Below are positions 2,772-22,801 of a stretch of DNA of 64,000 bases, piece after piece. Position 1 is the first letter of the stretch, and each line of letters starts with the position of its first letter. The stretch spans positions 3,488,001 through 3,552,000 of the forward strand of contig OY969474.1 of NCBI GenBank assembly GCA_963700145.1, given 5' to 3'. This stretch comes from an uncultured Acidobacteriota bacterium (lineage in GTDB: Bacteria > Acidobacteriota > Thermoanaerobaculia > Multivoradales > UBA5704). Under the pieces are notes generated by a model, which saw nothing but the letters and a program-made list of their open reading frames with translations, made no database searches and was not told the origin of the DNA. A program made the translations under genes and the position numbers.

Positions 2772-3823
2772 TTGAAGATCGCCGCCGTCGGCAAGGCCCT
2801 CCCCCCGCACTACTACGACCAGGACACTCTCCTGGAAGCCCTGCGCCAGCGCTGGGCCGACCGCCACTACAACCCCGGCCGCCTCGAGCGGCTGCACAAG
2901 AACGTGCTGGTCGGCGGCCGCCACCTGGCGCTGCCGATCGAGGAGTACGCCGGCCTCACCACCTGGGGCAAGGCCAACGACGCCTGGATCCGCGTCGCGC
3001 AGGAGGTCGGCGAGGCGGCGGTGCGCGACGCGCTCGGCGCGCGCGGGCCTCGACCCCGAGGCGATCGACGCCCTCATCTTCGTCACCGTGACCGGCGTCG
3101 CCACGCCCTCGATCGACGCCCGGCTGGTCAACCGCCTGGGGCTCTCGCCGCGCGTCAAGCGGATGCCGATCTTCGGCCTCGGCTGCGTCGCCGGCGCGGC
3201 GGGGATCGCGCGCGCCGCCGACTACGTCCGCGCCTTCCCGGACCAGGTGGCGGTGCTGCTCTCGGTCGAGCTCTGCTCGCTCACCCTGCAGCCGGAGGAC
3301 CTCTCGATCCCCAACCTGATCGCCTCCGGCCTCTTCGGCGACGGCGCCGCGGCGGTCGTCGTGGTGCGGCGACGAGCGGCCGGCCGACGGCCCGCGCATC
3401 GTCGCCACCCGCTCGATCTTCTACCCCGACTCCGAGCGCGTCATGGGCTGGGACATCTCCGAGAGCGGCTTCCAGATCGTGCTCTCCGCCGAGGTGCCGC
3501 AGGTCGTGCGCGACCACCTGCGCGCCGACGTCGACACCTTCCTCGCCGACCAGGGCCTGGCGCGCGGCGACATCGCCACCTGGATCTCCCACCCCGGCGG
3601 CCCCAAGGTGCTGGAGGCGATGGCCGAGGCGCTGGAGCTCCCCGAAGGCGCGCTCGACGTCACCTGGCGGAGCCTGCAGGAGGTCGGCAACCTCTCCTCG
3701 ACCTCGGTCCTCCTCGTCCTCCGCGACACCCTCGACTCCCACCGCCCGCCCCCCGGCAGCTACGGCCTGATCTCCGCCATGGGCCCCGGCTTCTGCTCCG
3801 AGCTGGTGCTGCTGCAGTGGTGA
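2772..3823 (+). CDS. Type III polyketide synthase (chalcone synthase-like), frameshifted in this sequence
   Basis: Three ORF pieces give catalytic GLGCVAGAAG (Cys), VELCSL, LFGDGAAA, SHPGGPKVL (His), GNLSS (Asn) and AMGPGFCSELVLLQW. Confidence 0.9.
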
Positions 3824-4421
3824 GCGCCGGCGCCGACACGCGGCTCCTCTTCACCCTCCTCGTCGTCGCCGCGGCGCTCGGGCGCGGCGTCGAGCTGCGT
3901 GATCGCCGAGCGCCACCGCCGGCGGCTGCTGGCGAACGGCGCCGTCGAGACCGGCGCCGGGCACTACCCGTGGATGGTGGCGTCTCCACGCCGCGCTTGC
4001 TCGTCGCCGCGCCGGCTGGAGGTCTGGCTCCTCGACCGGCCCTTCCTGCCCTGGCTCGCCTTCCCGATGCTCGCGCTCTTCGCGCTCGCGACGGCGCTGC
4101 GCTGGTGGGTGATCGCCACGCTCGGCGAGCGCTGGACGACGCGCATCCTCGTCCTGCCGGAGGCGCCGCCGGTCACCGGCGGGCCCTACCGCTTCCTCCG
4201 CCACCCCAACTACCTGGCGGTCGTCCTGGAGCTCGCCGCGCTGCCGCTCGTCCACACCGCCTGGCTCACCGCCCTGGCCTCGCCGCCGTGCCGAACGCCG
4301 CGATCCTCCGCGTGCGCATCCGCGCCGAGGAGCGGGCGCTCGCCGGCGCCTCCGACTACGCCGCGCGCTTCGCCGGCCGCCCGCGCCTCGTGCCGGGCGC
4401 GCCGCCCGCCGGACGCGATGA
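3820..4421 (+). CDS. Isoprenylcysteine carboxyl methyltransferase-like membrane methyltransferase (SrsB/BpsB type), frameshifted
   Basis: LRWWVIATLGERWTTRI...GGPYRFLRHPNYLAV...RIRAEERAL, directly after the type III PKS. Confidence 0.85.
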
Positions 4422-4677
4422 CCCGCGCCGCCGATCCTGGACGGGATCGCCGAGGTGGCGCGGCGCCACCTCGGCTGGCAGGGCGCGCTGACGCCGGCGA
4501 TGCGCCTGGTCGAGGACCTCCGGCTCGACTCGATCCGCCTGCTGACCCTGGCGGCCGAGGTGGAGAACCGTTTCCGCGTCATCCTGGACGAGGAGGACGA
4601 GCTGCGCCATCGAGACCGTCGGCGACCTGGTCGCCCTCGTGGCCGTGAAGCTGCAAGCCGGTTGACCTGCCCCGTGA
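4418..4677 (+). CDS. Acyl carrier protein, frameshifted; end approximate
   Basis: RLVEDLRLDSIRLLTLAAEVENRF contains the phosphopantetheine attachment DS motif. Confidence 0.8.
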
Positions 4678-6470
4678 GCGATTCGCCGCCCGCCGCCACC
4701 CTCCTCGACCTCCTCGCGCGCGGCGGGCGCCGCCCGGACGGCGGCCTCCGCTTCCTCGACCGCGACGAGCGGGCGACCTGGGTCGGCTGGGCCGAGGTGC
4801 GCGAGCGGGCGCTGGCGGTCGCGCGGCGGCCTGCAGCGCGCTCGGCGTCGGCGCCGGGCGACCGGGTGGCGCTCGTCTTCCCCACCGGCCCCGAGTTCTT
4901 CGACGCCTTCTTCGGCGCGCTCGCTCGCCGGCGCGGTGCCGGTGCCGCTCTACCCGCCGGTGCGGCTCGGGCCGGCTCGACGAGTACCTCGAGCGCACCG
5001 CGCGCATGCTGGAGGTGGCCGGCGCCCGGCTGGTGCTCGCCGACCGCCGGGTCAAGGCGCGTGCTCGGCGAGGTCGTCGCCGCGCGCCCGCCCGCGCCTC
5101 GGCTGCCGCACGCTCGGCGAGCTGCCGGCGCGAGCGCGCCGAGCCGCCGCCGGTCGCGCCGAGCGACCTGGCGCTCGTCCAGTTCTCCTCCGGCACCACG
5201 GTCGAGCCCAAGCCGGTCGCGCTCTCGCCACCGCGCCGTCGTCGCCCAGGTGCGCAGCCTGAACAGCTTCCTGGCGGCGACACTCCGAGAGCTGCGCGAC
5301 AGCGGCGTCTCGCTGGCTGCCGCTCTACCACGACATGGGGCTCATCGGCTGCGTCTTCCCGGCCCTCGCCCGCGACGCCAGCCTCACCCTGATCGGCCCC
5401 GAGCACGTTCGTCGCCCGCCCGGCCCTCTGGCTGCGCGCCCTCTCGCGCTACCGCGCGCACGATCTCGCCGGCCCCGAACTTCGCCTACGCCCTCTGCGC
5501 GACGCGCATCCGCGACGCCGAGATGGAGGGCGTCGACCTCTCGTCCTGGCGGCCTCGCCCTCAACGGCGCCGAGCCGGTGGCGCCGCCGGTGCTGCGCGC
5601 CTTCGCCGAGCGCTTCGCCCGCTGGGGCTTCCGGCCCGAGGCGCTGACCCCGGTCTACGGCCTCTCCGAGGCGGCGCTCGCCGTCACCTTCTCCGCGCTC
5701 GACCGGCCGTTCGCGAGCCGGCGGTTCGAGCGCGAGGCGCTGGCGCGCGAGGGGCGGGCGCGTGGACGACGCCGAGGGGCGCGAGATCGTCTCGGTCGGC
5801 CGGCCGGTGCCCGGCTTCCGCCTGCGCGATCCGCGACGAGGCCGGCCGCGACGCTGCCCGAGCGCCGGGTCGGACGGCGTCTGGATCGCCGGGGCCGTCG
5901 CTCATGGAGGGCTACCTCGACGACCCCGAGGCCACCGCCGCGCGCCCTGCGCGACGGCTGGCTCGACACCGGCGACCTCGGCTTCCTCGCCGACGGCGAG
6001 CTGTACCTGACCGGCCGCGCCAAGGACGTCGTCATCCTGCGCGGCCGCAACTACGCGCCGGAGGAGATCGAGCGCGCGCGTCGACGGCGTCCCGGGCGTG
6101 CGCACCGGCTGCGCGGTGGCGGCGAGCTGGCTGCCGGAGGACGCGCCACGGCGAGGCGCTGGTGCTCTTCGTCGAGCGCCGGCGCGGGCGCCGGCCGCCG
6201 AGGAGCTCGCGGCGCTGCCCGAGGCCTGCCGCGCGGCCGTGCTGCGGCGCCACCGGCCTCGCCGTCGACGAGGTCGTCGTGCTGCCGCCGGGGACGCTGC
6301 CGCGCACCTCGTCCGGCAAGCTCCGCCGCGCCGAGGCGCTGCGGCTCTGGCTGGCCGGCGAGCTGGCGCCGCCGGAGCCGGTGACGCCGCTGCGCCTGGC
6401 CGACGGCCATGGCGCGCTCGGCGCTCGCCTACGCGCGGCTGCGCGGAGGCGCGGAGGCGACTCGGAGTGA
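4674..6470 (+). CDS. Fatty acyl-AMP ligase (FAAL), multiple frameshifts
   Basis: Pieces give [61 protein letters not shown] and LPRTSSGK. Confidence 0.85.
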
Positions 6471-9830: not shown

Positions 9831-10118
9831 ATGAGCGAACCCGTCCAGCCCAAGAACGAGCCGATCCACCCCGGCCGCCAGTGGGTGGGCAAGCTCGCGA
9901 AGACCGGCCTGCCGGTCCTGATCGCCCTCTGGGCCTGGCCCGCCGTGCGCGGCCTCCTGGAGGGCTGGGCGGAGCGGGGGGAGGGGGCGGGGCTCGAGCG
10001 CCTGCTCCTCTTCGCGGCCATTGCTTTAGCGCCTTGGCTCCTCAAGTGGCGGACCCAGCGCGCGGCGAAGCCGGCGACGACCGGGCCGGACCCTACGAAG
10101 CCTCTCGAACCCTCCTGA
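9831..10118 (+). CDS. Small hypothetical membrane protein
   Basis: ATG 9831; two hydrophobic segments (LPVLIALWAWPAV and LLLFAAIALAPWLL). Confidence 0.6.
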   Translation: MSEPVQPKNEPIHPGRQWVGKLAKTGLPVLIALWAWPAVRGLLEGWAERGEGAGLERLLLFAAIALAPWLLKWRTQRAAKPATTGPDPTKPLEPS

Positions 10119-10131
10119 AGCCCCCAAGATC

Positions 10132-10152
10132 CTCCGGCGGCACCCCGGGATA
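10132..10152. repeat. 21-bp exact direct repeat, copy 1 (copy 2 at 11844-11864)
   Basis: ctccggcggcaccccgggata occurs at both positions. Confidence 0.85.
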
Positions 10153-10166
10153 AGGCCGGGGCGGCG

Positions 10167-10205
10167 GCGTGGTAGGCATCGACTCCGAACGAGCGGGCAT
10201 CCCAA
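10167..10205 (-). repeat. 39-bp exact duplicate of an internal segment of the SRPBCC gene (14362-14400)
   Basis: gcgtggtaggcatcgactccgaacgagcgggcatcccaa at both positions; encodes WDARSFGVDAYHA on the minus strand. Confidence 0.9.
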
Positions 10206-10313
10206 CCGCGCGGTCCCGTCCGCTCGACCCTGCCCGGCGGAAAGGCCCGGCAATCCAGGCACGTCGGGGGCACTTGCGCCGCTCTGGCGCGTCGGATCCC
10301 TGCGCCGTGGTAG

Positions 10314-10544
10314 TTATGGGCAGCCAGTTGAACAACTGGGAAGGCACGCGCCCATGCACTGGTTATATGCTTCCCAATTGTAAGGGTTAACCGGCGGTTG
10401 CTGGCAAGCGAGCCAGCAGTTATTAGCACACTCTTGGTCGTCCACGCAGCTTGCAGCCGGTCTGGGCGGAATCAGCATTGCCGCTATGAAAAGGACTCCC
10501 AGGATTCCAATCCTGCAGAGTGCGTAGGGAGTCTTAGTTCTCAT
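10314..10544 (-). CDS. Small secreted cysteine-rich peptide (8 Cys in the mature part)
   Basis: Strong SD TAAGGAGGTG just before ATG 10544; signal-peptide-like N-terminus; mature region SCVDDQECANNCWLAC...CMGACLPSCSTGCP. Confidence 0.75.
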   Translation of the reverse strand: MRTKTPYALCRIGILGVLFIAAMLIPPRPAASCVDDQECANNCWLACQQPPVNPYNWEAYNQCMGACLPSCSTGCP

Positions 10545-10713
10545 AAACACCTCCTTATGTTGGCAGAGCTCAATTGCTCCGCCCAGCCGCTGCTTCTACG
10601 GAATGGATGACTCTCGCACGCAGCACGCGGAGATCCTTCGACTGTCCGCATATGGTCCTGTTCGGCAAACCGGTGCAGACCCAACAGATGCCTTCCTCCC
10701 TATAAGCTACGAG

Positions 10714-10749
10714 ATGATAACAGCGAAGGAGTTCAAACGCAAATGCGAC
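10714..10749 (-). promoter_or_regulatory. Putative sigma70 promoter for the Cys-rich peptide, with GTCGCATTTGCG overlapping the -35
   Basis: Minus strand TTGCGT-N17-TATCAT with an extended -10 TG. Confidence 0.5.
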
Positions 10750-10989
10750 GCCCTAGCGCGATGTTCGCGGTTCGTCGTGGCCCGGGCCAAGGCTTAGACC
10801 TGGGCCGTGGGCTTCCGAGCGTCGCGGGGGACGACGCCTCGGCCCGGCGATTGCCGGGTGCCCCGGCCGGCCGGTTTCGATGCCGCAGTTTTCCGTTGAC
10901 TGGAGCGGGAAGCAGCTGATAGCGTAAGTTCGGCGTAGGGGAGAATCGCAGAGCGCGTAAAGCCGGAGCCGAGTCTCGGGCCGAGAGGT

Positions 10990-11066
10990 GAAAGCGGGCA
11001 CGACAGAGTTGCAGCTCTGCCGCGCCCTCGACCAGACAGGAGGGTCTAGCTCCATGTCCAGCCGTG
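10990..11066 (-). ncRNA. Putative SymR-like antisense antitoxin RNA
   Basis: Antisense -10 TGcTACACT at 11073-11081. The RNA would cover the symE-like start and SD and end in the hairpin GGGCGCGGCAGAG-CTGCAA-CTCTGTCGTGCCC (10996-11027). Confidence 0.5.
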
Positions 11067-11422
11067 ACACGAAGTGTAGCAACCGCCGTCTGTCGGCCCA
11101 GGCCGGCCCCTTTTCCGGCCCCTACATCCCTTACCCCGATCCGTTTTCCGCCGAGGACCACCGGCTGCTCGAGCTCCACGAGCGGGCGGCGGAGACCGCT
11201 GCGCTCCACGAGGAGGCGCGGGGGGAGGAGCTGAGAGAGCGCCGCCGGCGGGCGCGGGCGGCGGGGCGGAGGGCCGGGACGGTGTCGGCGCGGTGGCAGC
11301 CGGCGGGGGCGGCGCCCTACTTGCGGCTCTCCGGGAGGTGGCTGCTGGCGGCCGGGTTCGAGATGGGGCGGGGAGTCGAAGTCGAGGTGCGCTCGGGGAA
11401 GCTGGTAATCCGGGCGGTTTGA
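11054..11422 (+). CDS. SymE family type I toxin
   Basis: C-terminal PYLRLSGRWLLAAGFEMGRGVEVEVRSGKLVI matches the SymE AbrB-fold signature; AGGAGG lies upstream. Confidence 0.8.
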   Translation: MSSRDTKCSNRRLSAQAGPFSGPYIPYPDPFSAEDHRLLELHERAAETAALHEEARGEELRERRRRARAAGRRAGTVSARWQPAGAAPYLRLSGRWLLAAGFEMGRGVEVEVRSGKLVIRAV

Positions 11423-11454
11423 GTCCCGCGCGGACGGGAAGGGTCGCCGCGAGA

Positions 11455-11840
11455 CCGGCGGCAGGCGCCGCGGGGCTGGCGGTGGACGCCTTTCGGACGG
11501 CGGCGGTCGCCTTTCGGACCGCGGCGCACGCCTTTCGGACGGCGGCGATCCCCGCGGGCTCGGCGGCAGGCGCCGCGGGGCTGGCGGTGGTCACCTTTCG
11601 GACGGCTGGCGGTCGCCTTTCGGACCGCGGCGTACGCCTTTCGGACCGCGGCGGTCGCCGCGGGCTTGGCGGCGAGCGCCGCAGGGCCGGCGGCGGTCTG
11701 TTTTCGGACCAACGGGCAGGTTTTCGGACGGCGGCGGTCGCTTTTCGGACGGCGGCGCCCGCTTCGGGCTTGGCGGCGCGCCCCGCGGGAGCGGAAGGTG
11801 GTCCATTTTCGGACGGCGGCGGTAGATTTTCGGACCGCGG
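11455..11840. repeat. Degenerate tandem array of 21-nt units (core TTTCGGAC-[GC]-GCGGCGGTCGC) with interspersed GC blocks
   Basis: tttcggac recurs in runs at 21-nt spacing. cggcggcaggcgccgcggggctggcggtgg occurs twice (~11457 and ~11561). Confidence 0.85.
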
Positions 11841-11854
11841 ATGCTCCGGCGGCA

Positions 11855-12185
11855 CCCCGGGATATCGCCGGAGCGGCGGAAAACGTTTCCACGTCCTCTG
11901 AGGAGGTCACCGGAAGGCCTGAGGATGCTCCTCCGGGGCCCGAGGATGTCGTATCAGAGCCTGAGGATATCGCCGGAAGCGCTGAGGATATCGCCGGAAG
12001 CGCTGAGGATGTATCCGGAAGCGCCGAGGATCTATCCGGAACGCCTGAGGATGTATCCGGAAGCGCTGAGGATGTTGTAATGCCTGAGGATAGATCCGGA
12101 AGCGTTGAGGACTATCTGAAGCCGTGAGGATCTATCCGGAACGCCTGAGGATAGATCCTCAGCGCTCGCTCCCTTATCCTCAGGC
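11855..12185. repeat. Degenerate tandem array of 21-nt units (consensus CTGAGGATATCGCCGGAAGCG)
   Basis: gaggat recurs every 21 nt; the + frame reads heptads EDIAGSA/EDVSGSA. Confidence 0.85.
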
Positions 12186-12261
12186 GTTGCTACGGCATCT
12201 CCCGCCGCTCCGGGAACGTCCTGGAGCTCCGCTCCAACAACCGGCGGAGCTCAGGGGGTGT

Positions 12262-13356
12262 TCACAGGTCCCGAAGCTGCCGCTGGAGCGACTGGAGCAC
12301 CTCCCGGAGCAACGTGGCGTCGGCGGCCGGGGCGACGGCGAGACCCTCGAGCGCGAAGTCGGCCGCCGGCGCGGCCTCCGACGCCTCGGCCTGCGCCGCG
12401 ACGGCCTCCAGGCCGGCCAGCGTCGCCTGCTTGTCCTTCAGCACGGCGTCCGCGGCGTTCGGGTCGCCCGGATAGAGCGTTCGCAGCCCCTCGATGTCGC
12501 CGGGCGAGAGATCCTGGCCGTTGCCGTCCGGAGCGCAGCCGCTGTTCGGGGTCCGGTAGAAGAGAGGCGGGAACCGGTAGAGCATCACCGACCTGCGGTC
12601 GAACACGCCCTCGACCACGGCCGCCCCGCTGGTGGGCCGGAGGTTCTGGTCGACCTTGCTCTTCGACCAGAAGTTCTGCGCTCCCGAGAGATAGGTGTAG
12701 ATGCCCGGCCGCCGTCCGGCGGAGTCCGAGATGAAGACGCCGCTCGGGTTGCGCGTCGGGACGTAGCCGGGGTCGTCCTCGAACCGAAACGCCTCCTGAC
12801 AGGGTCCCCGCAGGTTGACGTGCTCGTGGTGGAACCCGAGCGCGTGGAGGAACTCGTGCCGCACTGTGCCGCGCCAGGCGCTCGGCAGCTCGATGTCGAA
12901 GCCGCCGAGATTCAGCGAGCGCTGCCCGGGGCGGCCGCCGACGGGCCCGTCGGGCATGCCGAGGTTGGGGGAAATCGAGTCGGTCCCGACGAGAGAGAAG
13001 AAGCCGCGCTGGTCGAAGCTCACCCGGATCTCCGCGGTGTAGTCGGTGTCCTCGACGCTCCACATCCTGTGGGTCCCCGCGGCTTCGTCGTGGCCGAAGT
13101 CGAGGGTCAGGTTGCACTCGTTGCCGATCTGCTGGGCCGCGTCGTGGATCTTTTCGTGAAGGTCGGTCGAGCCGCCCAGGAATGCCACGCGCACGGTGCT
13201 GCCCGGCAGCCAACGCCGCACGTTCTCGATGACGAACTCCAGCCCGCCGGCCGTGTTGCCCAGCGCCTGCAGGGCTCGATCGCGCGCCTCGAGGGTGGCC
13301 TGGACGTCGTCCGGCATAGCTTCCAGGACGATAGGTTCTTCCGGTTCCTCCGGCAT
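12262..13356 (-). CDS. Metzincin metallopeptidase (M12A/astacin-like)
   Basis: HEFLHALGFHHEH zinc motif, FDRRSVMLY Met-turn and LSPGD; SD TAAGGAGG upstream. Confidence 0.85.
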   Translation of the reverse strand: MPEEPEEPIVLEAMPDDVQATLEARDRALQALGNTAGGLEFVIENVRRWLPGSTVRVAFLGGSTDLHEKIHDAAQQIGNECNLTLDFGHDEAAGTHRMWSVEDTDYTAEIRVSFDQRGFFSLVGTDSISPNLGMPDGPVGGRPGQRSLNLGGFDIELPSAWRGTVRHEFLHALGFHHEHVNLRGPCQEAFRFEDDPGYVPTRNPSGVFISDSAGRRPGIYTYLSGAQNFWSKSKVDQNLRPTSGAAVVEGVFDRRSVMLYRFPPLFYRTPNSGCAPDGNGQDLSPGDIEGLRTLYPGDPNAADAVLKDKQATLAGLEAVAAQAEASEAAPAADFALEGLAVAPAADATLLREVLQSLQRQLRDL

Positions 13357-13543
13357 GTTACGACCTCCTTAAAGACGTCTGCGCCGCGCAGACGCCTCAG
13401 CCGGTGAGACGGACACGGGGTCGCGACTTCTCCCGGCGCTGGCGATCCGGGCGTTAGCCGCGGCCTAGTCGGGAAGGGTCACCGCGGGGCTCAGAGGATG
13501 CCAACCGCGATCGAGCCGAGGCCAAGGGCGAGACCGAGCAAGG

Positions 13544-14090
13544 TCAATGGACCTGCAGGATGGCTGCTACGTCTCCCAGGATGCGGGCTTTAAGCGCTTC
13601 ACCGGCGGCTTCCTGCGCCAGGGCAAAGGTGTAGCGCAACTTGACGAAATGGTCATTGATGCTCAGCACGTAGAGATAGGAGCGCTGCGGGACACCCTTT
13701 TGGTTGAACGCAAAGCTCGCTGCCATCGTGGGACGGCCACCAAGGACCAGGGAACTGTCGCTCAGATGGCGGACGTCTTGCCAGTGGGGCACAACAGCCA
13801 CATGGCGCTTAGCCCATTCAAACTGGGGTGGTGACGAGCTCCGGGCGGTTGTCGGGGATCTGCCGAAAGCCGCCCGTATAGACGAAGATGGACAAGACGA
13901 TGTCGTCGGCCTTGTAGGTAAGGCCGATGCCGAGAGCGGGATTGGGAAACTCCTCTGTCTTGGTGAGAGGCAAGCCGGCAAGCTCCGGCGGGAATGACAG
14001 GTGGCTGGGGCTGTGGCGGTAGCCAGCCGTTGCCGTGGAACAGCATGCGGCGGTCAACCACACGGCGACAAACGCTCGCATTGCCTTCAT
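13544..14090 (-). CDS. Hypothetical exported protein, one frameshift near 13825
   Basis: ORFs 13818-14090 and 13544-13981 join into one protein with a signal-like N-terminus. Confidence 0.55.
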
Positions 14091-14186
14091 TCAGGCACTC
14101 AATCCCTGGAGCTCACGGCGGCGACAACCGCCCGTGCAGTCTACGGCCATCGCCGTCGATCTCGCAAAAGAGAACCAGGTGGCGGT

Positions 14187-14676
14187 TTAAGCAGCGGGAG
14201 GGTAGCGACCGTGTGCTTGGACCCCGAGCGCCTCAAGCCAGGCTTGGTGACCTCGGTACATTCGGTTCGGCAAAAATCGCTTCTGGAGCCTCGCGAGGGA
14301 GCCGTGTTGCGCTTCCTCCGTCAGAACATGGCACCCTCGGGGTGTCTCGCGCAGAACCCACGCGTGGTAGGCATCGACTCCGAACGAGCGGGCATCCCAA
14401 GCGATGCGCTCCTTCGGAATGAATCCCACCACTTCAGATTCGATCGTGCCCCAAAGGTCTTCCATCTGAAGCGAGTTCCAGCTTCGAGGTCCGGCCCTGT
14501 TCCGTTACGAAACCGCACGTTGGCGGAATTGCAGTACCAGGTCGGCCAGAGCTTCGCTCGATCAGCCAAGCCCAAACATAGTCTACGGAAGTTGGTATGG
14601 ACTCATTCCGGACGTGAACAGGCGCGTTCGCTGGCGCGAAATAGTCTGGCCATCTGACACCGTCAACAGTCGTCAT
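14187..14676 (-). CDS. SRPBCC/polyketide cyclase-like protein, frameshifted
   Basis: Pieces APVHVRNE..VWAWL..WPTWYCNSANV..GTRFRWKTFG..AWDARSFGVDAYHAW..LTEEAQHG. Confidence 0.7.
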
Positions 14677-14818
14677 GAAGTGTCCCGTTTGAGCTGGGAA
14701 GGCCCTTCAGCGAGCCGCCTACTCCAAAGAGACGGACCAACCTGGGGTTTCACTCAAGCGCCTGTGCGGACCATCATCCCGTGATGGGCCTGTGAGTTTT
14801 TGACGGTGGCTGCGATCA

Positions 14819-15168
14819 TCATTTGATCTCCACGAAATACGTAACCAACCGCTTGATCTTGCCGCGTTGCATGACGAAGACGTCGCAAAACACTGCGCTC
14901 AGGAAGCCGCCGGCCCGTCTCTGGGAGCGCACCGAGCCTTCCGCGACGACGACATCGTCCTCTTCGGTCATTCGCGTGACGGTGATGGTCGGGCTGCCGA
15001 CGAACGCAGCGTTCTCGATTTCCTTGTCGAAGGCTTCCTTGCCAATCAAGTGGAGTACACGGGCATCTCCCATTCGATGTCATCAGTCAGGCAAGACAAG
15101 ATCAGCTCATGGTCGCTTCGCCTGAAGCCGTCCATGTACTTCTCCACCGTTCTTTTGTTCTCGGTCAT
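14819..15168 (-). CDS. NTF2/SnoaL-like protein, one frameshift
   Basis: MTENKRTVEKYMDGF..ILSCLTDDIEWE..EEDDVVVAEG..FCDVFVMQRGKIKRL. Confidence 0.75.
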
Positions 15169-15171
15169 GGG

Positions 15172-15585
15172 TCAAGGCGGATCGACCGAGTCCGCGGGCA
15201 CCATCGCGATATCGACGGGAGCGCCCGGGTTGTGGCTTCGGATGACGAATTCGTCGTCGTCGAGCGTCAGGATGTCGACGCGATACGGAATGGACTCCTC
15301 GACCATGACGAGGCCGTCTTCCGTTCGGACCAGGACCCGACCATGGGCTTGTTGCCCGGCGACGTGATCACGAGGGTGCCGTCCGAGAGGAATGCGTCGA
15401 GGGTGCCTCCGCGACCGCCGATGAGCGGGCGACCCGCCAGACGCGGTCGACAAAGCTGCCGGGCGCTCCGAAGCGCGGGGGGCCGGTGGCGCGACCGGAG
15501 GAGGAGGATCGGGCGGTCGAGAGCAAGCCAGGACGGCCAGTAGGCCGAGTGCCGTAACGAAGCGCCGGCTCGACCGGATCGTCAT
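15172..15585 (-). CDS. Hypothetical lipoprotein, frameshifted
   Basis: ATG 15585, lipobox-like LAVLAC and a Pro-rich linker. Confidence 0.55.
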   Translation of the reverse strand: MTIRSSRRFVTALGLLAVLACSRPPDPPPPVAPPAPRASERPAALSTASGGSPAHRRSRRHPRRIPLGRHPRDHVAGQQAHGRVLVRTEDGLVMVEESIPYRVDILTLDDDEFVIRSHNPGAPVDIAMVPADSVDPP

Positions 15586-15840
15586 GCCGCGGCGTCGGCG
15601 AACCTCCCGGCCTGGGAAGACCAGGACCCCCGGATGGCACTTGAGCGCTCGAGCAAGGACCTTGGCGCGCTCCACGCCGAGGCGGACGCGGTCGTTTTCG
15701 ATGGCCGAAATGGTGGCCTGGGAGATCCCGGTCAGCCGGGCCAGCTGGTTCTGGCTCAGCTCCTGAAGCTCCCGAATGATGCGCACCGACTCGCCGAAGG
15801 CGCCGTGAATTCGCTTCTTGGCAGGGGAGTACCTTTTCAT
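15582..15840 (-). CDS. XRE/HigA-like HTH protein (apparent orphan antitoxin)
   Basis: GESVRIIRELQELSQNQLARLTGISQATISAIENDRVRLGVERAKVLARAL. The likely true end ADAAA-stop is in a shifted frame overlapping the next ATG. Confidence 0.8.
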
Positions 15841-15897
15841 CCGAGCCTCCGGTAACCGTGAGCGATGGTAAGGGGCGACACACTCAGCGGTCTCTAT

Positions 15898-16228
15898 CTA
15901 AGTGCCGCGCCGTTCGGGGAGTAGCCGCAGGACGATCCTGACCCCCGTGCCGTCGGGGGACAGGGTGCCGGGGCGGACGCGGAAGCTGGTCGTCCCCTCC
16001 ACCCAGTCGCGCACGGTGTAGGTGGCGTTGCCTACCTTGCTGCCCGGGCAGGAGTAGAGGCAGACGACGCAGCCGGAGTGCCACTCGGGGAGGTTGGCCC
16101 AGTGGCCGCCGAAGCGCATGGCGAAGCCGCGGCGGCCGGGGGTCTTCGAGGACCTCGGCGAGCCCGTGCTCCGGCGCCCGGGAGCGCGGGTTCTCCCGCT
16201 CGTCCCACGTCTTCATCCCCAGCGCGCG
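15898..16228 (-). pseudogene. Displaced, internally deleted 3' half of the YdjY-like gene at 19247-19945
   Basis: WDERENPRSRAPEH..[gap]..LAEVLEDP..FAMRFGGHWANLPEWHSGCVVCLYSCPGSKVGNATYTVRDWVEGTT, nearly identical to the intact copy. Confidence 0.85.
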
Positions 16229-16254
16229 GCGATGCGGCCGCCGAGTGACGAGTC

Positions 16255-16902
16255 CTACCGGATGACGTTCAAGAGTTCGCGGGGCGAAGAGATAATCGCG
16301 TCGCAGGTCTCCAGACCTGGCCGAAGCCAAATGCCGCGCCCACGATGGCAAGGCCGGCAGCCCGCGCGGCTCGAACGTCCGCCTCTGTGTCACCAACGTA
16401 TACTGCCTCGCTAGCGGGAACAGCAAGGCGCTCGAGGGCCGAGGAGTAGGTCCGGCGCAGGTTTGTACCTAACGCCGTCGTCACCCGTAACGATTACCTC
16501 GAAGATACCAGAGTCCAGGCCAACAGTCCGCAGGAAGAGATGCGTTGTCGCCCGTCGCTTGTTCGTGGCCACCCCGAGCCTCTTTCCACGACTTCGGAGG
16601 TCAGCGAGGGTCTCTCTCATTCCCGGAAAAGCCTCAAGGCGCGAAACTCCACCTCCGTCGTACATTTTACGTCTGAAGGCGCTGCGGAATCGCTCGCCGA
16701 GCGAGGGGTCCGTGCCCACAGCGAGCATGGCTATCTCGTCAGCAGGCTTTCCGATCATGGCCAGTAGCTCTTCTCGAGGAGGGGGCTCCCTTCCGAGGTC
16801 CACCAGCGCTTGCCCGATAGCGTAGATATGGGCCTCCCCAGAATCCACCAACACGCCATCGACATCGAATAACACCGAACTTACTACACAGGGCAGTCCC
16901 AT
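16255..16902 (-). CDS. HAD-superfamily phosphatase (phosphoglycolate phosphatase-like), two apparent indels
   Basis: VLFDVDGVLVDS (motif I), GVATNK (II), KPAPD (III) and YVGDTEAD (IV). Reconstructed tail DAIISSPRELLNVIR-stop at 16255. Confidence 0.85.
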
Positions 16903-16952
16903 TATCGCCGCCTCGCGTTCACTATAGTTGCTTCCTTTGGGCGCCTTGAACT

Positions 16953-18824
16953 TTAATACCGCCCGCCGAAAGCACTGGGCATCAGGCCCAGTTCACGTAG
17001 CCCGTCCCCCACTTCCTGACCAACGTCGAACAAAAGACCCAGCGCGAGTCTTGCCTTGGATGAAGCGTGCCATTTTCCGGAGTACGAGACACCGTCATGC
17101 TCTCCAAGTTCTATCTCGTCAGTCGCCATGAGCTGTTGCAGAGACCCTATTCCCCAACTCGGGAGGAGATGAGGGGGGACCATTAGGTTCTCGGCCCGAT
17201 GTTCCGCCGAATTCCAACGGGCGTAGGCCTCATTGGCCGTGGCGTCAACCCACGTGATCGCGAGGAAATTGGCAGCAATACTACTCGCCTCGACAGCCAA
17301 GGCGAGAATGAATGTCCGCGATTCATCTAGGTCCAGGTCAAGCTCCTCTTTGGCGCCGCGCTGAAGGGCATGGAAGACACTTTTATCGCCGTTCGATTTG
17401 CGCCTTGGGTTCTCGTATGCCGAGTTGACGTGAGGAGCATTCGCCTGCTCTTCAAAGGAAGCTGATATCCGCCCAATCTGGTTGTCCACATTTGTCCGCC
17501 GGTTGAGAAGCACTTTGTTGTCAGAGGTAATGACTAAGCCGTGGTTGCCTATGTGGTGTGGAAACTGAACAGCATCCTGCAATGACGTCAGCTCGCGAAC
17601 CGAGTGCCAGAATTCGTCAGCCACTTGCGAATCCTCACCCAGTCTCGACTGTGTTCCATGAATCAAGGCCCACGTCGTAAGAGCTAGAGAGCAATTCAGA
17701 TTACCTCCAGTCTGCCTGAAGGCAAGGAGGCGGTACTTCGGACTGTCGCGGTGCCCCTTTTCGCGAAAGTTGCGGACCATGTCGCTTTCGAGGCGTTCGA
17801 GCAACGAGTTCGGCTGAGGAGTGAAGAACTCGGGAGTTGGCTGCCAGAGCACCTCTTCGTTTCGCCATCCCATCAGCCGAGATCGCGCCACACGACAAGT
17901 AAGAACTATAGTCTCGCCGATTGCCAAGTGTTGAAGATCCGGCGGAACAGTGGCGGCCGGGCGAAGCCCCGGAGCCTCTGGGTCAGGTACGGCTGTGCGA
18001 AGACCGCGAACCCGACTCCGGAGAGATTGCAGAAGCAAGGGAAGCTCAGCATGATCGCCATAGCGGATCGTCTGTATGTTGTATTCTTTCCAGAGTTCTT
18101 CCTCGCGCTCGGGACTCTCGGAGCCTTGAGGTGACGCGACCAGGGCGAAATGGGGTCGCGTGTGTCCCTCGAAGATTGCGGCAGCATACCTAAATTGCTC
18201 GAGAACGTAGGGGTCGGAGAGGCTGAAGCCGATAAAGAGAATGCTGTGCTGAAAGAGAATGCTCTGGTAGGCAATTTGATAGGCTTTCTCTCGATAGAGT
18301 CGTTCGTAGTCGTCGGAGGCCAAGCACCACGTCTCGGGGTTCTCGATCGTGCCGTGCAGCTTGAGGAGGAGTTTTTCGCCTTCACGGCGCTCGGCCCAGT
18401 ATGCCAAGCCAGCCGGTGTAGGAAGAAGTGTCTTAGCGTGCGGGGTGACGGCCGTCTCGAGGCACGTATCGATGTTCGATGTCATAACGAGAGGAGGCTC
18501 CAGTGCCCAGATGAGCTGCTGTCCCTCAAGAAGAGCTGCGGAAGGCTGGGGTGCCAGCTTGTCTTCCACAAAGCGCCTGTATCTGTTCAGGCCGAGTTCT
18601 TGCCTGGCTTCCTGGATAGCCTGAAGGTAATTCCCCTTTAGCTGATGTCCAAGAGCAAGGTGCCAGTTGAGTTGTTCAATCTTAAGCATGTCAATTAGAC
18701 CAGATAAGAACTGCTTCCAAGATGGGAAGCCCGCGGGTATTGAGATACCAGTGCCAACGAAGGGTATGCAGTGATGCTCCGAAAGCGCCCGCGTTAGCGT
18801 CCCAGGTATCTCGAAATCGGTCAT
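16953..18824 (-). CDS. SIR2-like (SIR2_2) domain protein fused to a C-terminal Nudix-like domain
   Basis: N-terminal FVGTGISIPAGFPSW, MTSNID, LKLHGT and LFIGFSLSDP. C-terminal GLVITSDNKVLLNRR and ALQRGAKEELDL (degenerate Nudix box). Visibly lower GC than the core genes. Confidence 0.8.
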   Translation of the reverse strand: MTDFEIPGTLTRALSEHHCIPFVGTGISIPAGFPSWKQFLSGLIDMLKIEQLNWHLALGHQLKGNYLQAIQEARQELGLNRYRRFVEDKLAPQPSAALLEGQQLIWALEPPLVMTSNIDTCLETAVTPHAKTLLPTPAGLAYWAERREGEKLLLKLHGTIENPETWCLASDDYERLYREKAYQIAYQSILFQHSILFIGFSLSDPYVLEQFRYAAAIFEGHTRPHFALVASPQGSESPEREEELWKEYNIQTIRYGDHAELPLLLQSLRSRVRGLRTAVPDPEAPGLRPAATVPPDLQHLAIGETIVLTCRVARSRLMGWRNEEVLWQPTPEFFTPQPNSLLERLESDMVRNFREKGHRDSPKYRLLAFRQTGGNLNCSLALTTWALIHGTQSRLGEDSQVADEFWHSVRELTSLQDAVQFPHHIGNHGLVITSDNKVLLNRRTNVDNQIGRISASFEEQANAPHVNSAYENPRRKSNGDKSVFHALQRGAKEELDLDLDESRTFILALAVEASSIAANFLAITWVDATANEAYARWNSAEHRAENLMVPPHLLPSWGIGSLQQLMATDEIELGEHDGVSYSGKWHASSKARLALGLLFDVGQEVGDGLRELGLMPSAFGGRY

Positions 18825-19101
18825 GTAGAGAGCCCCTTCTCGTTACAGAAGTGCGGAGTCGTAATGGAGGCCCCGGCCAAGGTACAGTCGGAGTGGAGCC
18901 GGGGAGCGCGATTCAGGCTCTCGCGTACCGGCTGCTACCTCTGCTGATTGATACAGCGCAAAGAACAAGGGCCAGGGGCGAGTTCGCAGTCCTAGCAATC
19001 GTTGGGCATGTGGGCTTGGTCGCCCGTGGTATGCAAGGCCGCCTGATGGCCTGCTCAGCTGGGCAGCATCCAACCGTCGGACTCTTCGTTTCTATACGTA
19101 G

Positions 19102-19137
19102 ACCATAGCAGGGCAGGAGCGGCTGCGCAAATGCGAC
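19102..19137 (-). promoter_or_regulatory. Putative sigma70 promoter for the SIR2-Nudix/HAD operon, with GTCGCATTTGCG overlapping the -35
   Basis: Minus strand TTGCGC-N17-TATGGT with an extended -10 TG. Confidence 0.5.
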
Positions 19138-19246
19138 CACGCCGTGCGTCGTGGGCGGATCTCGAGTTTACACGGTACCCGCTAGCCGGCGCCGGTTCCG
19201 CTGCGCGAGGGTGACAGACGCTTCGCCCTAGCGAGCAGCGGGCCGA

Positions 19247-19945
19247 TCACATCGCTCGGTGTCGCAGCCGCAAGACGATCGTGACCGGCGTGCCGTCCGG
19301 CGGCAGCACCCCCCGCCGAACTTGGAAACGGGTCGTCCCCTCCACCCAGTCGCGCACGGTGTAGGCGGCGTTGCCGACCTTGCTGCCCGGGCAGGAGTAA
19401 AGGCAAACAACGCAGCCGGAGTGCCACTCCGGGATGTTGGCGCGGTGGCCGCCGAATCGCATGGCGAAGCCGCGGCGGCCTGGGTCTTCTAAAACCTCGG
19501 CTAGCCGGAGCGGTTTCCTTCCCGGCACCTTCACGAGCACCTCGACCGGCGGCCCTGCGATCACTTGCTCCGGCGCATGGGAGTGCGTGTCCTCCCGCTC
19601 GTCCCAACTCTCCATCGCGAGCGCGTTCCCCGGCTTCGCGCCCAGTGACTCCAGCGCATCCAAGACCTGCACGTCGTTCACCGCGGCGCGGAAGAGCGCC
19701 GCCGGCGCCGCGCTGCCGCCGCGCCAGACGACCAGGTGATAGCCCGGCATCCCGAGCACGCGCCGGTGGAAGGCGCCGGCGTGCACCGTCGCCGGAAAGG
19801 AGACGGCGCGCGCCGCCCGGTCCACGGCGACCCGCCCCGGCGCCTCCTCGGCGCCCCCCGGCGCGCAGCCGGCGAGGAACACGACCGCGACCAGCGCCTC
19901 AACTCTCAGACTTGGCCGACAGCGCCTCGGAGCCACTTTTGCCAC
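19247..19945 (-). CDS. YdjY-like lipoprotein; start uncertain
   Basis: Lipobox FLAGC and the FGG..SGCVVCLYSCP..GN motif of the YdjY family. Confidence 0.7.
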   Translation of the reverse strand: MAKVAPRRCRPSLRVEALVAVVFLAGCAPGGAEEAPGRVAVDRAARAVSFPATVHAGAFHRRVLGMPGYHLVVWRGGSAAPAALFRAAVNDVQVLDALESLGAKPGNALAMESWDEREDTHSHAPEQVIAGPPVEVLVKVPGRKPLRLAEVLEDPGRRGFAMRFGGHRANIPEWHSGCVVCLYSCPGSKVGNAAYTVRDWVEGTTRFQVRRGVLPPDGTPVTIVLRLRHRAM

Positions 19946-20011
19946 AGCGCCAGCGTACCGTAGACGGCGCGGCCGGCGGGTCGCGCCGGCGCCCTTGCTA
20001 CAATGTCCTCG

Positions 20012-20251
20012 ATGAGCACCGTCAGTCCAAAAGAGCTTCAACGCGACGCGGATGCCCTCTTGGACCGCGTCGAGGCCGGGGAACACCTCGTCGTGGTCCG
20101 CGACGGCCGCGCGGTCGCCGAGCTGCGGCCCGTTCCCGCGGCACAGTCCGGTCCGCGACCGTTCGGCCTCTCCGCCGGGGCGTTCGCGGTCCCGGGCGAC
20201 TTCGATACGCCGCTGCCTGAGGAAGTCCTGAGGCTGTTCGAAGGCCGGTGA
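20012..20251 (+). CDS. Phd/YefM family antitoxin
   Basis: LLDRVEAGEHLVVVRDGRAVAELRP..VPGDFDTPLP; overlaps the PIN toxin gene. Confidence 0.85.
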   Translation: MSTVSPKELQRDADALLDRVEAGEHLVVVRDGRAVAELRPVPAAQSGPRPFGLSAGAFAVPGDFDTPLPEEVLRLFEGR

Positions 20252-20640
20252 GGCTGCTCCTCGATACCCACGTCTTCCTCTGGTACATCACCGCCGACCC
20301 GAAGCTCCCGGCCGCGTTCCGGGAGGCCATCCGGGACCAGGCCAACGAGGTCTACCTGAGCGTCGCCTCGGTCTGGGAAGCGATCATCAAGTCCCACCTC
20401 GGCAAGCTTCCGCTCCCGGCGCCGCCAGCCGACTACCTGTCGCGGCAGCGGGAGGCTCACGGGATCGCCAGCCTGCCGATCGACGAGGGGGCGATGTCGC
20501 ACCTGGCCGGTCTGCCGGCTCTCCATGGCGACCCGTTCGACCGGCTACTGATCGCCCAGGCGCTGCAACACGGGCTGACTATCGCTACCGTCGATCCGGA
20601 GATTGCGGCGTATCTCGTCCCTTTGCTTCCGGCGGCCTAA
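20248..20640 (+). CDS. vapC: VapC PIN-domain toxin
   Basis: LLLDTHVFLW, SVASVWE and HGDPFDRLLIAQA. Confidence 0.9.
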   Translation: MRLLLDTHVFLWYITADPKLPAAFREAIRDQANEVYLSVASVWEAIIKSHLGKLPLPAPPADYLSRQREAHGIASLPIDEGAMSHLAGLPALHGDPFDRLLIAQALQHGLTIATVDPEIAAYLVPLLPAA

Positions 20641-20652
20641 CGGCCCGGGAGG

Positions 20653-22794
20653 TCACGCCGCCCCTCCCACCCGGATCCTCGCGTCGAGCGCCACGGCGTT
20701 CCCCCGCTCGGGCGCCGCGAGGAAGGGGTTGACGTCCAGCTCCTGGATCGACGGGTGTCTCTGCACCAGTTGCGCGATGCGGAGGACGACCTCCTCTAGC
20801 ACTGCCAAGTCGGCGCCCGGCTCGCCGCGGACGCCGGCCAGGAGCGGGAACCCCCGGATGCCTCGCACCAGGTCGTGCGCCTCGTGCGGGGCCAGCGCCG
20901 GCACGGCGAAGCGGACGTCCTGGAAGACCTCGACGTACTTGCCGCCGAGGCCGAACATCAGGAGCGGTCCGAAGCGCGGGTCGGTCGAGACGCCGAAGAT
21001 GACCTCGTGGCCGCCGCGGACCATCGGCTGGACCACGTACCCTGCGAGCCGGAGCCCGGCCGCCGCCAGGCGCTCGCGCATCTCCGCCGCCGCGGCCGCC
21101 ACCGCGGCGGCGTCCTCCAGGCCGAGCCGCACCGCGCCGACGTCGCTCTTGTGCACCAGCCCGGGCGCGATCGCCTTGAGCGCCGCCGGGAACCCCAGCT
21201 CGCCCGCCGCGGCGGCGGCCTCCTCGGGAGTCACCGCCACGCGCCAGGGGGCCACCGGCACGCCGTAGAGCTCGAGCACGCGGAAGGTCTCGGCCGGGTC
21301 GAGGTAGCCACCGGGCTCCCGCCGCTCCGCCGCCGCAAGGATCGCCGCCACCGCGGCGTCGTCGGCCGGGAACTCCGGCGTCGGCTCGTCCGCCGGCCGC
21401 CGGCGCCAGGCGGCGTAGCGGGCGAGCATCGCCAGCGCCCGCGCCGCCGGCTCCGGGAAGTGGTAGACCGGCGGCAGGTGCCGCCGCTCGCGCGCCGCCG
21501 CGTAGAACTCCTCGGTCGCCATCATCACCGCCAGCACCGGCTTGGCGCGCGCCGCCGCCACCCGCCCGGCCTCCTCCAGGACGCCGATCGGGTTGGCGAG
21601 GAGCGGCGTGACGTTGATGACCATCGCCAGGTCCACCTCGGGGTCGTCGAGCACCGCTTCGAGCGCCGCGCCGTACTGCTCGACGGTCGCCGAGGCGATC
21701 ATGTCCACCGGGTTGGCGAGGCTCGCCGCCGGCGGCAGGAAGGCGGCGAGGCGCTCGCGCGTCGTCGCCGCCAGCTCGGCCATCCGCAGCCCCTGGTTGA
21801 CGCAGGCGTCGGTCGCCATGATCGCCGGCCCGCCGGCGTTGGTGACGATGCCGACCCGGTTGCCCTCGGGCAGCGGGCAGCGGTCGAGGGCCAGGGCGAC
21901 GTCGAACAGCTCCTCGATGCTGTTGGCGCGCAGCACGCCGCACTGGTCGAGGAAGGCCGAGACGGTGACGTCGGCGCCGGCGATGGCGCCGGTGTGGCTG
22001 GTGGCGGCGCGGGCCCCCTCGATGGTGCGCCCCGACTTGACGACCAGGATCGGCTTCTTCCGCCCGACGCGCTTGGCGATCTCGGTGAAGCGGCGCCGGC
22101 GACCCGCGTCGTCGCCATGTACCTGGAGTCGTTCGGCAACCCGCGGTCTTCCTCCCAGTGCTCGAGCAGGTCGTTGCCCGAGACGTCGGCCTTTGTTGCC
22201 CATCGAGACGAACTGCGTGAGGCCCATGCCGAGCTGCCCGGCGACGTTGAGGATGGCGACGCCGAGCGCCCCCGACTGGCTGACGAAGCCGATCGAGCCG
22301 GCGCGGGCGGGGACCGGCGCGAAGGTGGCGTTCATGTCGACGCCCGCCTGGGTGTTGATGACCCCCATGCAGTTGGGGCCGATCATCCGCGCCCCCGCCG
22401 CGCGCACCGTGTCGCGCAGCCGGCGCTCGAGCGCTGCCCCCTCCGGGCCGGTCTCGGCGTAGCCGGCGGTGATGACCACGAGCCCGCGCACGCCGCGCGC
22501 GAGGCAGGCCTCGACCACCTCCTGCACCAGCGGCCGCGGCACGACGATGATCGCCAAGTCCACCGGGTCGGGGATCTCCGCCACGGTGGCGTAGCTGCGC
22601 AGCGAGTGGATGGCGCGGGCGAACGGGTTGACCGGGTAGATCGCCCCCTTGAACTCGTTGACCACCAGGTTGTGGAGGAGAGAGAAGCCGATCGAGTCGC
22701 GCTGCCGCGAGGCGCCGACGACGGCGATCGAGCGCGGCGAAAAGATCGTGTCGAGCGGACGCGGCGGCAGCGGCGCGGAGACGGGCTCGCTCAA
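20653..22794 (-). CDS. Acyl-CoA synthetase (NDP-forming) / acetate-CoA ligase family; internal ~50-bp inversion
   Basis: IAVVGAS, GPNCMG, SQSGA, ATSHTGA (phospho-His), NAGG, NPVD, HKSDVGAV and ELDVNP. Confidence 0.9.
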   Translation of the reverse strand: MSEPVSAPLPPRPLDTIFSPRSIAVVGASRQRDSIGFSLLHNLVVNEFKGAIYPVNPFARAIHSLRSYATVAEIPDPVDLAIIVVPRPLVQEVVEACLARGVRGLVVITAGYAETGPEGAALERRLRDTVRAAGARMIGPNCMGVINTQAGVDMNATFAPVPARAGSIGFVSQSGALGVAILNVAGQLGMGLTQFVSMGNKGRRLGQRPARALGGRPRVAERLQVHGDDAGRRRRFTEIAKRVGRKKPILVVKSGRTIEGARAATSHTGAIAGADVTVSAFLDQCGVLRANSIEELFDVALALDRCPLPEGNRVGIVTNAGGPAIMATDACVNQGLRMAELAATTRERLAAFLPPAASLANPVDMIASATVEQYGAALEAVLDDPEVDLAMVINVTPLLANPIGVLEEAGRVAAARAKPVLAVMMATEEFYAAARERRHLPPVYHFPEPAARALAMLARYAAWRRRPADEPTPEFPADDAAVAAILAAAERREPGGYLDPAETFRVLELYGVPVAPWRVAVTPEEAAAAAGELGFPAALKAIAPGLVHKSDVGAVRLGLEDAAAVAAAAAEMRERLAAAGLRLAGYVVQPMVRGGHEVIFGVSTDPRFGPLLMFGLGGKYVEVFQDVRFAVPALAPHEAHDLVRGIRGFPLLAGVRGEPGADLAVLEEVVLRIAQLVQRHPSIQELDVNPFLAAPERGNAVALDARIRVGGAA

Positions 22795-22801
22795 CCGCGC
22801 C

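Follow-up and report, generated by a model that had tools for sequence, protein, structure and literature searches.

The stretch of DNA analysed here (the window) comprises 64,000 nucleotides of contig OY969474.1 from an uncultured soil bacterium of the Acidobacteriota, and it harbours on its reverse strand a gene (16953..18824) for a 623-aa protein in which an N-terminal SIR2 domain is fused to a C-terminal Nudix module resembling human NUDT22. This SIR2-Nudix architecture is real and unnamed and, going by its sequence relationships, probably represents a conflict or defence enzyme system. The gene resides on a small foreign cassette together with a HAD-IA phosphatase gene, and its homologues in other loci are accompanied by an extended short-chain dehydrogenase/reductase (SDR). 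The reading preferred here, held tentatively and at slightly less than an even chance, is that of a serial-enzyme conflict protein (probably anti-phage), in which a SIR2 domain of the NADase type would act in tandem with a competent NUDT22-like pyrophosphatase. Domains, fold, family architecture, SDR linkage and foreign origin are demonstrated by the analysis, and NADase activity, Nudix substrate, order of reactions and defence role are inferred.

The open reading frame (ORF) of the fusion gene is intact and contains all motifs quoted in a preliminary description of this DNA (GTGIS, TSNID, KLHG, GFSLSDP, VITSDNKVLLNRR and RGAKEELDL). Homologues of 637-655 aa can be aligned with it over the whole length, and the gene is present as a single copy within its own genome; a word-based search retrieved just two full-length homologues of the fusion (39% and 33% identity). 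The SIR2_2 domain occupies residues ~5-270 (18015..18812, reverse strand) and displays GTGIS, TSNID (N117, D119) and KLHG (H157), with Pfam SIR2_2 (PF13289) matching residues 112-253 above its gathering score (E 1.2e-26, 94 bits against a cut-off of 24.5). In 7/7 SIR2-bearing relatives the N/D/H columns of TxN(I/F/Y)D and K(L/V)HG are conserved, and work on ThsA and DSR2 is said to have assigned catalytic roles to the Asn/Asp and His residues. By its profile match and motif columns the domain is intact, as the preliminary description had held. Furthermore, defence SIR2s provide the nearest PADLOC models for the fusion (LmuA, E 6.4e-23; ThsA, 5.6e-22; also Dsr1), these models and the NCBIfam Dsr1 model being confined to its first ~260 residues, and further sequence matches come from SIR2 domains joined to STAND proteins of the NB-ARC or NACHT kind.

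The C-terminal half is a two-lobed NUDT22-like Nudix module (residues ~300-615; 16980..17927, reverse strand) with the variant box SASFEEQ...GD-x8-RGAKEELDL. The residues of this half were modelled from a 52-sequence alignment, and this domain model was used in place of a full-length AF2 model built from 3 sequences. The C-terminal model is confident (pLDDT 94.1, pTM 0.92), and the six leading Foldseek matches are human NUDT22 chains (best E 6e-14), all top fold matches being Nudix proteins. At the sequence level, NUDT22 is likewise matched by the family profile (E 2.5e-6); phmmer with the C-terminal part alone against PDB sequences gave no match at E up to 10. An N-terminal lobe is followed by a Nudix lobe, which is the arrangement of NUDT22. 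The predicted fold and the profile thus identify a true Nudix fold of the NUDT22 type, bearing out the Nudix-like C-terminus proposed earlier. According to a published account (PMC10101856), NUDT22 converts UDP-glucose to UMP and glucose-1-phosphate.

Across the 52-sequence alignment, the family Nudix box reads WSxSFEEQ...GD-x8-RGxxEE(L/F)G. Within the module E458, E459, R489, E494 and D435 are invariant (52/52), and conservation reaches 90% or more at D480, G490, E493, E512 and E545, a pattern which argues for retained metal-dependent Nudix chemistry. The alignment therefore presents the box as a conserved, family-specific variant and not as a decayed one, and the earlier term "degenerate" Nudix domain has to be given up, the variant being invariant in 52/52 sequences. 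Sensor-only Nudix domains differ in this respect, as they are not known to keep the acidic residues of the box.

The family to which the module belongs was delineated by an exhaustive HMMER search with residues 290-623, which returned 51 representatives at E <= 1e-3. The Pfam scan covered 47 of these, leaving out the query, P0002 (a SIR2_2-bearing protein among the closest homologues) and fragments of 157 and 80 aa. The N-terminal domains joined to the module are diverse: SIR2_2 in 6/47, TIR in 5/47, EAD7 in 3/47, Trans_reg_C in 3/47, HTH in 2/47, and, in one of the 47 each, EAD8 plus TIR, a trypsin-like protease, a cytidine-deaminase-like domain, a metallophosphoesterase and HNH (the last a weak match, below cut-off). 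One further representative (P0018; 1/47) carries an SDR "Epimerase" domain ahead of SIR2, and HAD is joined to the module in 0/47. Pfam NUDIX (PF00293) is detected in the module region of 8/47 relatives (6 above the gathering score). The module of a TIR version (P0012) has 38% identity to the query (E 7e-47) and is as close to it as those of the SIR2 versions are; SIR2 and TIR, two unrelated NADase domains, are thus interchangeable on the module. Taken by its domain partners, this rare, unnamed Nudix clade is marked as a conflict-system module.

A similar set of partners is known from the EAD-coupled, vWA/STAND-type conflict systems, passages of whose description (Kaur et al. 2020, PMC7159879) present EAD7 and EAD8 as adaptors recruiting effectors to NTPase-based conflict systems and name Nudix among the effector domains acting on NAD+/ADPr. 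Relatives of the present module are likewise fused to EAD7, EAD8 and TIR, and two of them (P0040 and P0044) consist of EAD7-Nudix without a further domain. The likeness lies in the domains named in those passages; the protein and cassette described here lack an EAD as well as an NTPase core.

The same architectures invite a different reading, in which the protein is a sensor-effector of the ThsA kind: the NUDT22-like module would bind (and maybe degrade) a nucleotide or NDP-sugar-type ligand, possibly one that the SDR partner or a phage produces or modifies, and would thereby switch on the SIR2 NADase. A constant C-terminal module combined with many alternative N-terminal outputs, including HTH (2) and Trans_reg_C (3) among the 47, is what such a sensor would look like, and both these fusions and NrtR precedents are in line with it; the combination of SIR2 with a C-terminal nucleotide-binding domain is, furthermore, the plan of ThsA, whose model matches the SIR2 half. 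Nevertheless, the family shows no variation at the acidic residues of the box region, the two EAD7-Nudix proteins resemble adaptor-recruited effectors (as these are portrayed in the passages of PMC7159879), and no signal-producing enzyme (TIR, cyclase) occurs among the cassette ORFs and Pfam scans. The sensor-effector reading is regarded as the main rival of the preferred one, though as rather unlikely.

The distribution of the module is very sporadic. It was found in 3/401 genomes sampled from the phylum, own genome counted, with the two other matches being weak (E 4e-9 and 4e-5), and a profile search again gave 3/401. A distant, 411-aa member of the clade was observed in another genome (G303; locus L032, 7700-8935), where the neighbouring genes encode an HTH protein, a large serine recombinase, a D12 adenine methyltransferase and a coupling protein of TrwB type; the setting is probably an integrative conjugative element.

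The genomic partners of the fusion were examined in contig scans, and the neighbourhood statistics rest on five foreign loci (two from genome contigs and three from metagenome contigs). An extended SDR of the "epimerase/dehydratase" family (PF01370) accompanies the fusion in 5/5 of these loci, being located upstream in three, fused in one and downstream in one. In L002, L003 and L005 the SDR gene precedes the SIR2-Nudix gene with 0-40 nt between them, in L006 (protein P0018) SDR and SIR2-Nudix form one polypeptide, and in L004, which holds the closest homologue with context, the SDR starts ~5 nt past the SIR2-Nudix stop with a typical N-terminus (VLVTGGAGFLGSHL), after which the contig ends. 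The cognate SDRs share 42-53% mutual identity, and the TGxxGxxG motif, the catalytic Ser/Thr and the YxxxK motif are intact in 4/4 of them; their best NCBIfam similarity is to ADP-glyceromanno-heptose 6-epimerase, below cut-off. The SDR is a conserved companion of SIR2-Nudix, and the canonical unit is SDR plus SIR2-Nudix. As for the copy described here, tblastn detected no SDR or SDR remnant in the window (including the 420-nt leader of the fusion gene), and the best SDRs of its own genome are just 31-33% identical to the cognate SDRs, i.e. no close SDR is present.

The wider surroundings of these loci vary. In L002 the SDR and SIR2-Nudix pair is flanked by DUF4062-NACHT and TIR-NACHT-FGE-sulfatase proteins (3447-5780, 10094-13084), and a 231-aa ORF without family overlaps the SIR2-Nudix stop codon on the downstream side. 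L003, which belongs to a Pyrinomonadaceae MAG, has a GNAT gene downstream and a PMT_2 glycosyltransferase among its neighbours, and in L005 a 158-aa ORF or an opposite-strand LacI gene is found downstream. The surroundings of L003 and L005 can also be accommodated by a housekeeping or niche-metabolic role, in which SDR, Nudix and HAD would act along one pathway of sugar-nucleotide or NAD turnover (an NDP-sugar is modified, then cleaved to a sugar-phosphate, which is dephosphorylated) with SIR2 as an NAD-linked accessory. All three enzymes (an SDR epimerase/dehydratase, a NUDT22-type NDP-sugar hydrolase and a HAD of sugar-phosphatase type) are of sugar-nucleotide kinds, and the glycosyltransferase and GNAT near L003 and the LacI regulator near L005 fit this picture. 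A metabolic role is nonetheless distinctly unlikely in view of the very sporadic distribution in both phylum searches (3/401 genomes), the exchange of SIR2 for TIR, the fusions to EADs, protease and deaminase, the proximity of the SIR2_2 domain to defence SIR2 models, and the location on a foreign cassette adjoining a PIN/Phd pair.

The HAD-IA phosphatase gene (16255..16902, reverse strand) lies 48 nt downstream of the fusion gene on the same strand. Two frame changes in the assembly split it into two pieces on the reverse strand, 16411..16902 (HAD_2, E 5.5e-24) and 16269..16484 (E 1.2e-6), the reading frame passing from 0 to 1 and back to 0 before the true stop at 16255-16257. HAD_2 scores 85.7 bits, the DxD motif I appears as FDVDGV in the translation, and among NCBIfam models phosphoglycolate phosphatase comes closest, with a score below cut-off. 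One public run (X1) was found to hold this stretch, and no RNA run was; a contig from it (depth ~4) carries three extra letters in this gene, at 16317 and 16440/16441, which make it a single 216-aa ORF; over the part covered, the public-run contigs agree gap-free with the SIR2 gene. On the evidence of this one low-depth contig, the breaks are either assembly errors or a strain difference, and the idea that the gene is a decayed pseudogene is no longer favoured, as its frame is continuous (216 aa) in the public-run contig. No orthologue was found in 30 relatives, which hold only paralogues of 34-36% identity, and the HAD gene was therefore co-acquired with the SIR2 gene.

The preliminary description had joined the two genes into a dedicated pair, which would destroy ADP-ribose and so block the reconstitution of NAD+ by phages (NARP1). 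The HAD gene does stand next to the fusion, on the same strand and within the same lower-GC island, it is co-acquired and probably intact, and ADP-ribose is itself an NDP-sugar, a suitable candidate substrate for a Nudix module of the NDP-sugar hydrolase type. The pairing is not kept elsewhere, however: HAD is encountered among the downstream genes of 0/3 homologous loci (L002, L003 and L005) and in none of the 47 family architectures, tblastn with HAD in L002-L006 gave no match, the conserved partner is the SDR (5/5 loci), and the gene is interrupted in the assembly. The presence of the phosphatase beside the fusion therefore stands, and its partnership with the fusion has to be abandoned as a general feature; likewise, the anticipated co-occurrence of homologues with HAD was not seen, and the anticipated defence-island setting was seen in one of three long-flank loci (L002). 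The dedicated-pair model is accordingly considered improbable, and a role of HAD in the system is doubtful.

The cassette itself (~3 kb) consists of the fusion gene and HAD and is bracketed by direct repeats of a YdjY-domain gene's 3' end. Its GC content is 0.54-0.59 over 16500-18999, against 0.67-0.74 in the flanks, and the repeats pair 15923-16141 with 19266-19484 (219 nt, 86%) and 16158-16226 with 19557-19625 (69 nt, 81%). The complete YdjY-domain gene (19247..20086, reverse strand; NF040466, E 7.2e-23) contains the right repeat in its 3' part (19266-19625), and the left repeat is a partial, diverged 3' copy (15898..16226, reverse strand) in which, compared with the full copy, there is a gap of 56 nt. 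Orthologues of the YdjY-domain gene occur in 13/30 relatives; the two copies share 85.5% identity, and each is 86-89% identical to same-genus orthologues, so neither can be assigned as native. In two same-genus genomes the order is HTH gene, YdjY-domain gene and RuvB, without the segments corresponding to 16227-19263 and 19892-22795 of the window, and the same-genus genome G004 (L027, 8295-9590) has ~1.3 kb of unrelated sequence at the cassette position (with ORFs matching no Pfam family), which indicates that the site is variable within the genus. The cassette is discrete, foreign and horizontally acquired at a variable site beside the YdjY-domain gene, in agreement with the earlier portrayal of a discrete, lower-GC cassette between two copies of a host gene's 3' half; its GC content, its absence from the syntenic site of the two same-genus genomes and the lack of HAD orthologues in 30 relatives all speak for this. 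The putative promoter of its own that the same description had ascribed to it was not confirmed: the 420-nt leader that separates the SIR2 gene from the YdjY-domain gene (18825..19246, reverse strand) has no site in a simple sigma-70 scan, and the one sigma-70-like site in 15800-19400 lies inside the gene, against 0.8 expected by chance.

The absence of the SDR raises the prospect that the copy described here is an incomplete remnant, in which an obligatory SDR was lost in transfer and the system no longer works even though the SIR2-Nudix ORF is open. The contrast between 5/5 foreign loci with an SDR and none in the window, the low identity of the genome's best SDRs (31-33%, against 42-53% among the cognates), the decayed gene fragment flanking the cassette and the HAD gene broken in the assembly are all compatible with such a loss. 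The 623-aa ORF is nevertheless of full length with all invariant residues present, and the HAD breaks vanish in the public-run contig, making a non-working remnant very improbable.

According to the preferred serial-enzyme reading, the SIR2 domain would, on a trigger, cleave NAD+ to nicotinamide and ADP-ribose, and the Nudix module (an NDP-sugar pyrophosphatase by homology) would split ADP-ribose or a related NDP-sugar into NMP and a sugar-phosphate, a cleavage that would render the loss of NAD+ irreversible. In the wider family, an extended-SDR enzyme resembling NDP-sugar epimerases/dehydratases would be the normal third activity; in the variant described here the SDR is missing, and the co-transferred HAD-IA phosphatase could dephosphorylate the sugar-phosphate or the NMP product. 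A conflict-type enzyme is favoured by the SIR2 effector type, the SIR2/TIR swap and the fusions to EADs, protease and deaminase, and also by the sporadic, foreign distribution, the STAND/TIR neighbours in L002 and the mobile-element setting of L032.

Several observations weigh against this serial-enzyme reading. A canonical Nudix box follows the consensus GX5EX7REUXEEXGU, and the family box departs from it both in its spacing, which is longer by one residue, and in the replacement of the Glu of "RE" by Gly ("RG") in 52/52 sequences; because of this replacement, Nudix catalysis is not assured. The HTH and winged-helix fusions (5/47) fit ligand sensing better than an effector role. The full-length AF2 model (3 sequences) has a pLDDT of 39.8 and is unusable for placing the two halves relative to each other, and no sensor or trigger has been identified. 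The neighbourhood is defence-like in L002 alone of the three close loci with long flanks, L003 and L005 lying among housekeeping-type genes, and PADLOC on 26 neighbour proteins matched no model save generic HTH. Further, the viral contigs scanned contained no relative, and the copy described here is perhaps an incomplete system, as the SDR conserved elsewhere is missing.

A bolder version can be built on the serial-enzyme reading, in which SDR plus SIR2-NUDT22-like (with HAD replacing the SDR here) would constitute a new class of NAD+-directed immunity that processes the breakdown beyond ADP-ribose. The SDR would oxidise or epimerise the breakdown product of NAD+, Nudix would cleave the pyrophosphate and HAD would dephosphorylate, resulting either in a dead end unusable for phage NAD+ reconstitution or in a modified sugar or nucleotide that is itself antiviral; the Nudix module would then be a transferable unit for the second step, placed behind SIR2 and TIR NADases alike. 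This extended version is deemed unlikely.

Bacterial immunity relies centrally on SIR2 and TIR NADases as effectors, and phages counter NAD+ depletion by rebuilding NAD+ from ADP-ribose. If the serial-enzyme reading is true, an NDP-sugar pyrophosphatase hard-wired behind an NADase would represent a host counter-move to this rebuilding, an idea with which the usual pairing with an SDR sugar-nucleotide enzyme is consistent, and the poorly understood NUDT22 fold would gain a bacterial function. Apart from function, the definition of a rare, unnamed Nudix clade makes this conflict-system module directly searchable.

The surroundings of the cassette show some further features. Between the YdjY-domain gene and RuvB are located a Phd-type antitoxin (20003-20251), a PIN toxin (20248-20640) and a gene for a 713-aa ADP-forming acyl-CoA synthetase-like protein (20653-22794); as the segment 19892-22795 is missing at the site in two same-genus genomes, a second insertion adjoins the cassette. 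A public-run contig (depth 4.3) joins 19330 to 15988 via 35 shared letters (15988-16022 / 19331-19365), its order being HAD, hybrid repeat and SIR2 leader, as expected of an excised circle or a tandem copy; the joint is possibly an assembly-graph artefact, since 35 letters barely exceed the assembler word length. On the other side, a 21-nt unit (CTGAGGATGTATCCGGAAGCG-like) is repeated five or six times in 12003-12152, along with inverted partners, either within a repetitive acidic ORF (SAEDV/SGSAED repeats) or upstream of it. GC is lowered a second time, to 0.58-0.64, at 13250-15250, a stretch that has short ORFs alone, with one SnoaL-like fragment, and is followed by an XRE-type HTH protein (15172-15840) with weak PADLOC HTH/CapH matches.

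Among known proteins, human NUDT22 (a UDP-glucose/galactose pyrophosphatase) shares the fold with the C-terminal module at an identity of just 16-18%, whereas the present module is bacterial and SIR2-fused and has a family-specific RGxxEE box variant and SFEEQ motif. NrtR-type Nudix sensors are more distant, their fold match being far weaker than that of NUDT22 and their domain order different, and the acidic residues are conserved here. Thoeris ThsA (SIR2-SLOG/STALD) has the same overall plan, in which an N-terminal SIR2_2 domain of the NADase type is combined with a C-terminal nucleotide-related domain, and its PADLOC model aligns to residues 10-254 (E 5.6e-22; models confined to 10-260). 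The C-terminal half of the present protein is, in contrast, a NUDT22-like Nudix module instead of SLOG/STALD, and the ORFs and Pfam scans covering 12-23 kb revealed no ThsB/TIR gene.

With Dsr1/Dsr2, SIR2-HerA and Lamassu LmuA-SIR2 the fusion has the SIR2 effector domain in common, and the matches, weak to moderate, are to that domain alone; unlike those proteins, it lacks a long sensor region. For Dsr1, the NCBIfam model NF041818 scores 24.1 bits against a cut-off of 1400, and the LmuA-SIR2 model of Lamassu is matched over positions 8-252 of 433 alone, short of a full match. HerA, LmuB and LmuC partners are absent from the neighbours, PADLOC LmuB giving no match among the 10 window neighbours. 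Literature searches yielded no description of a SIR2-Nudix, TIR-Nudix or NUDT22-like architecture, within a scope that excluded the supplementary tables of candidate systems in defence-discovery papers, which could list it. Since PADLOC and NCBIfam matches cover the SIR2 part alone, the view that the protein corresponds to no named system is upheld. What sets it apart from the systems compared is a SIR2-effector conflict protein, probable as such, in which a familiar SIR2 domain is joined to a new partner module and served, in its wider family, by a new conserved SDR companion.

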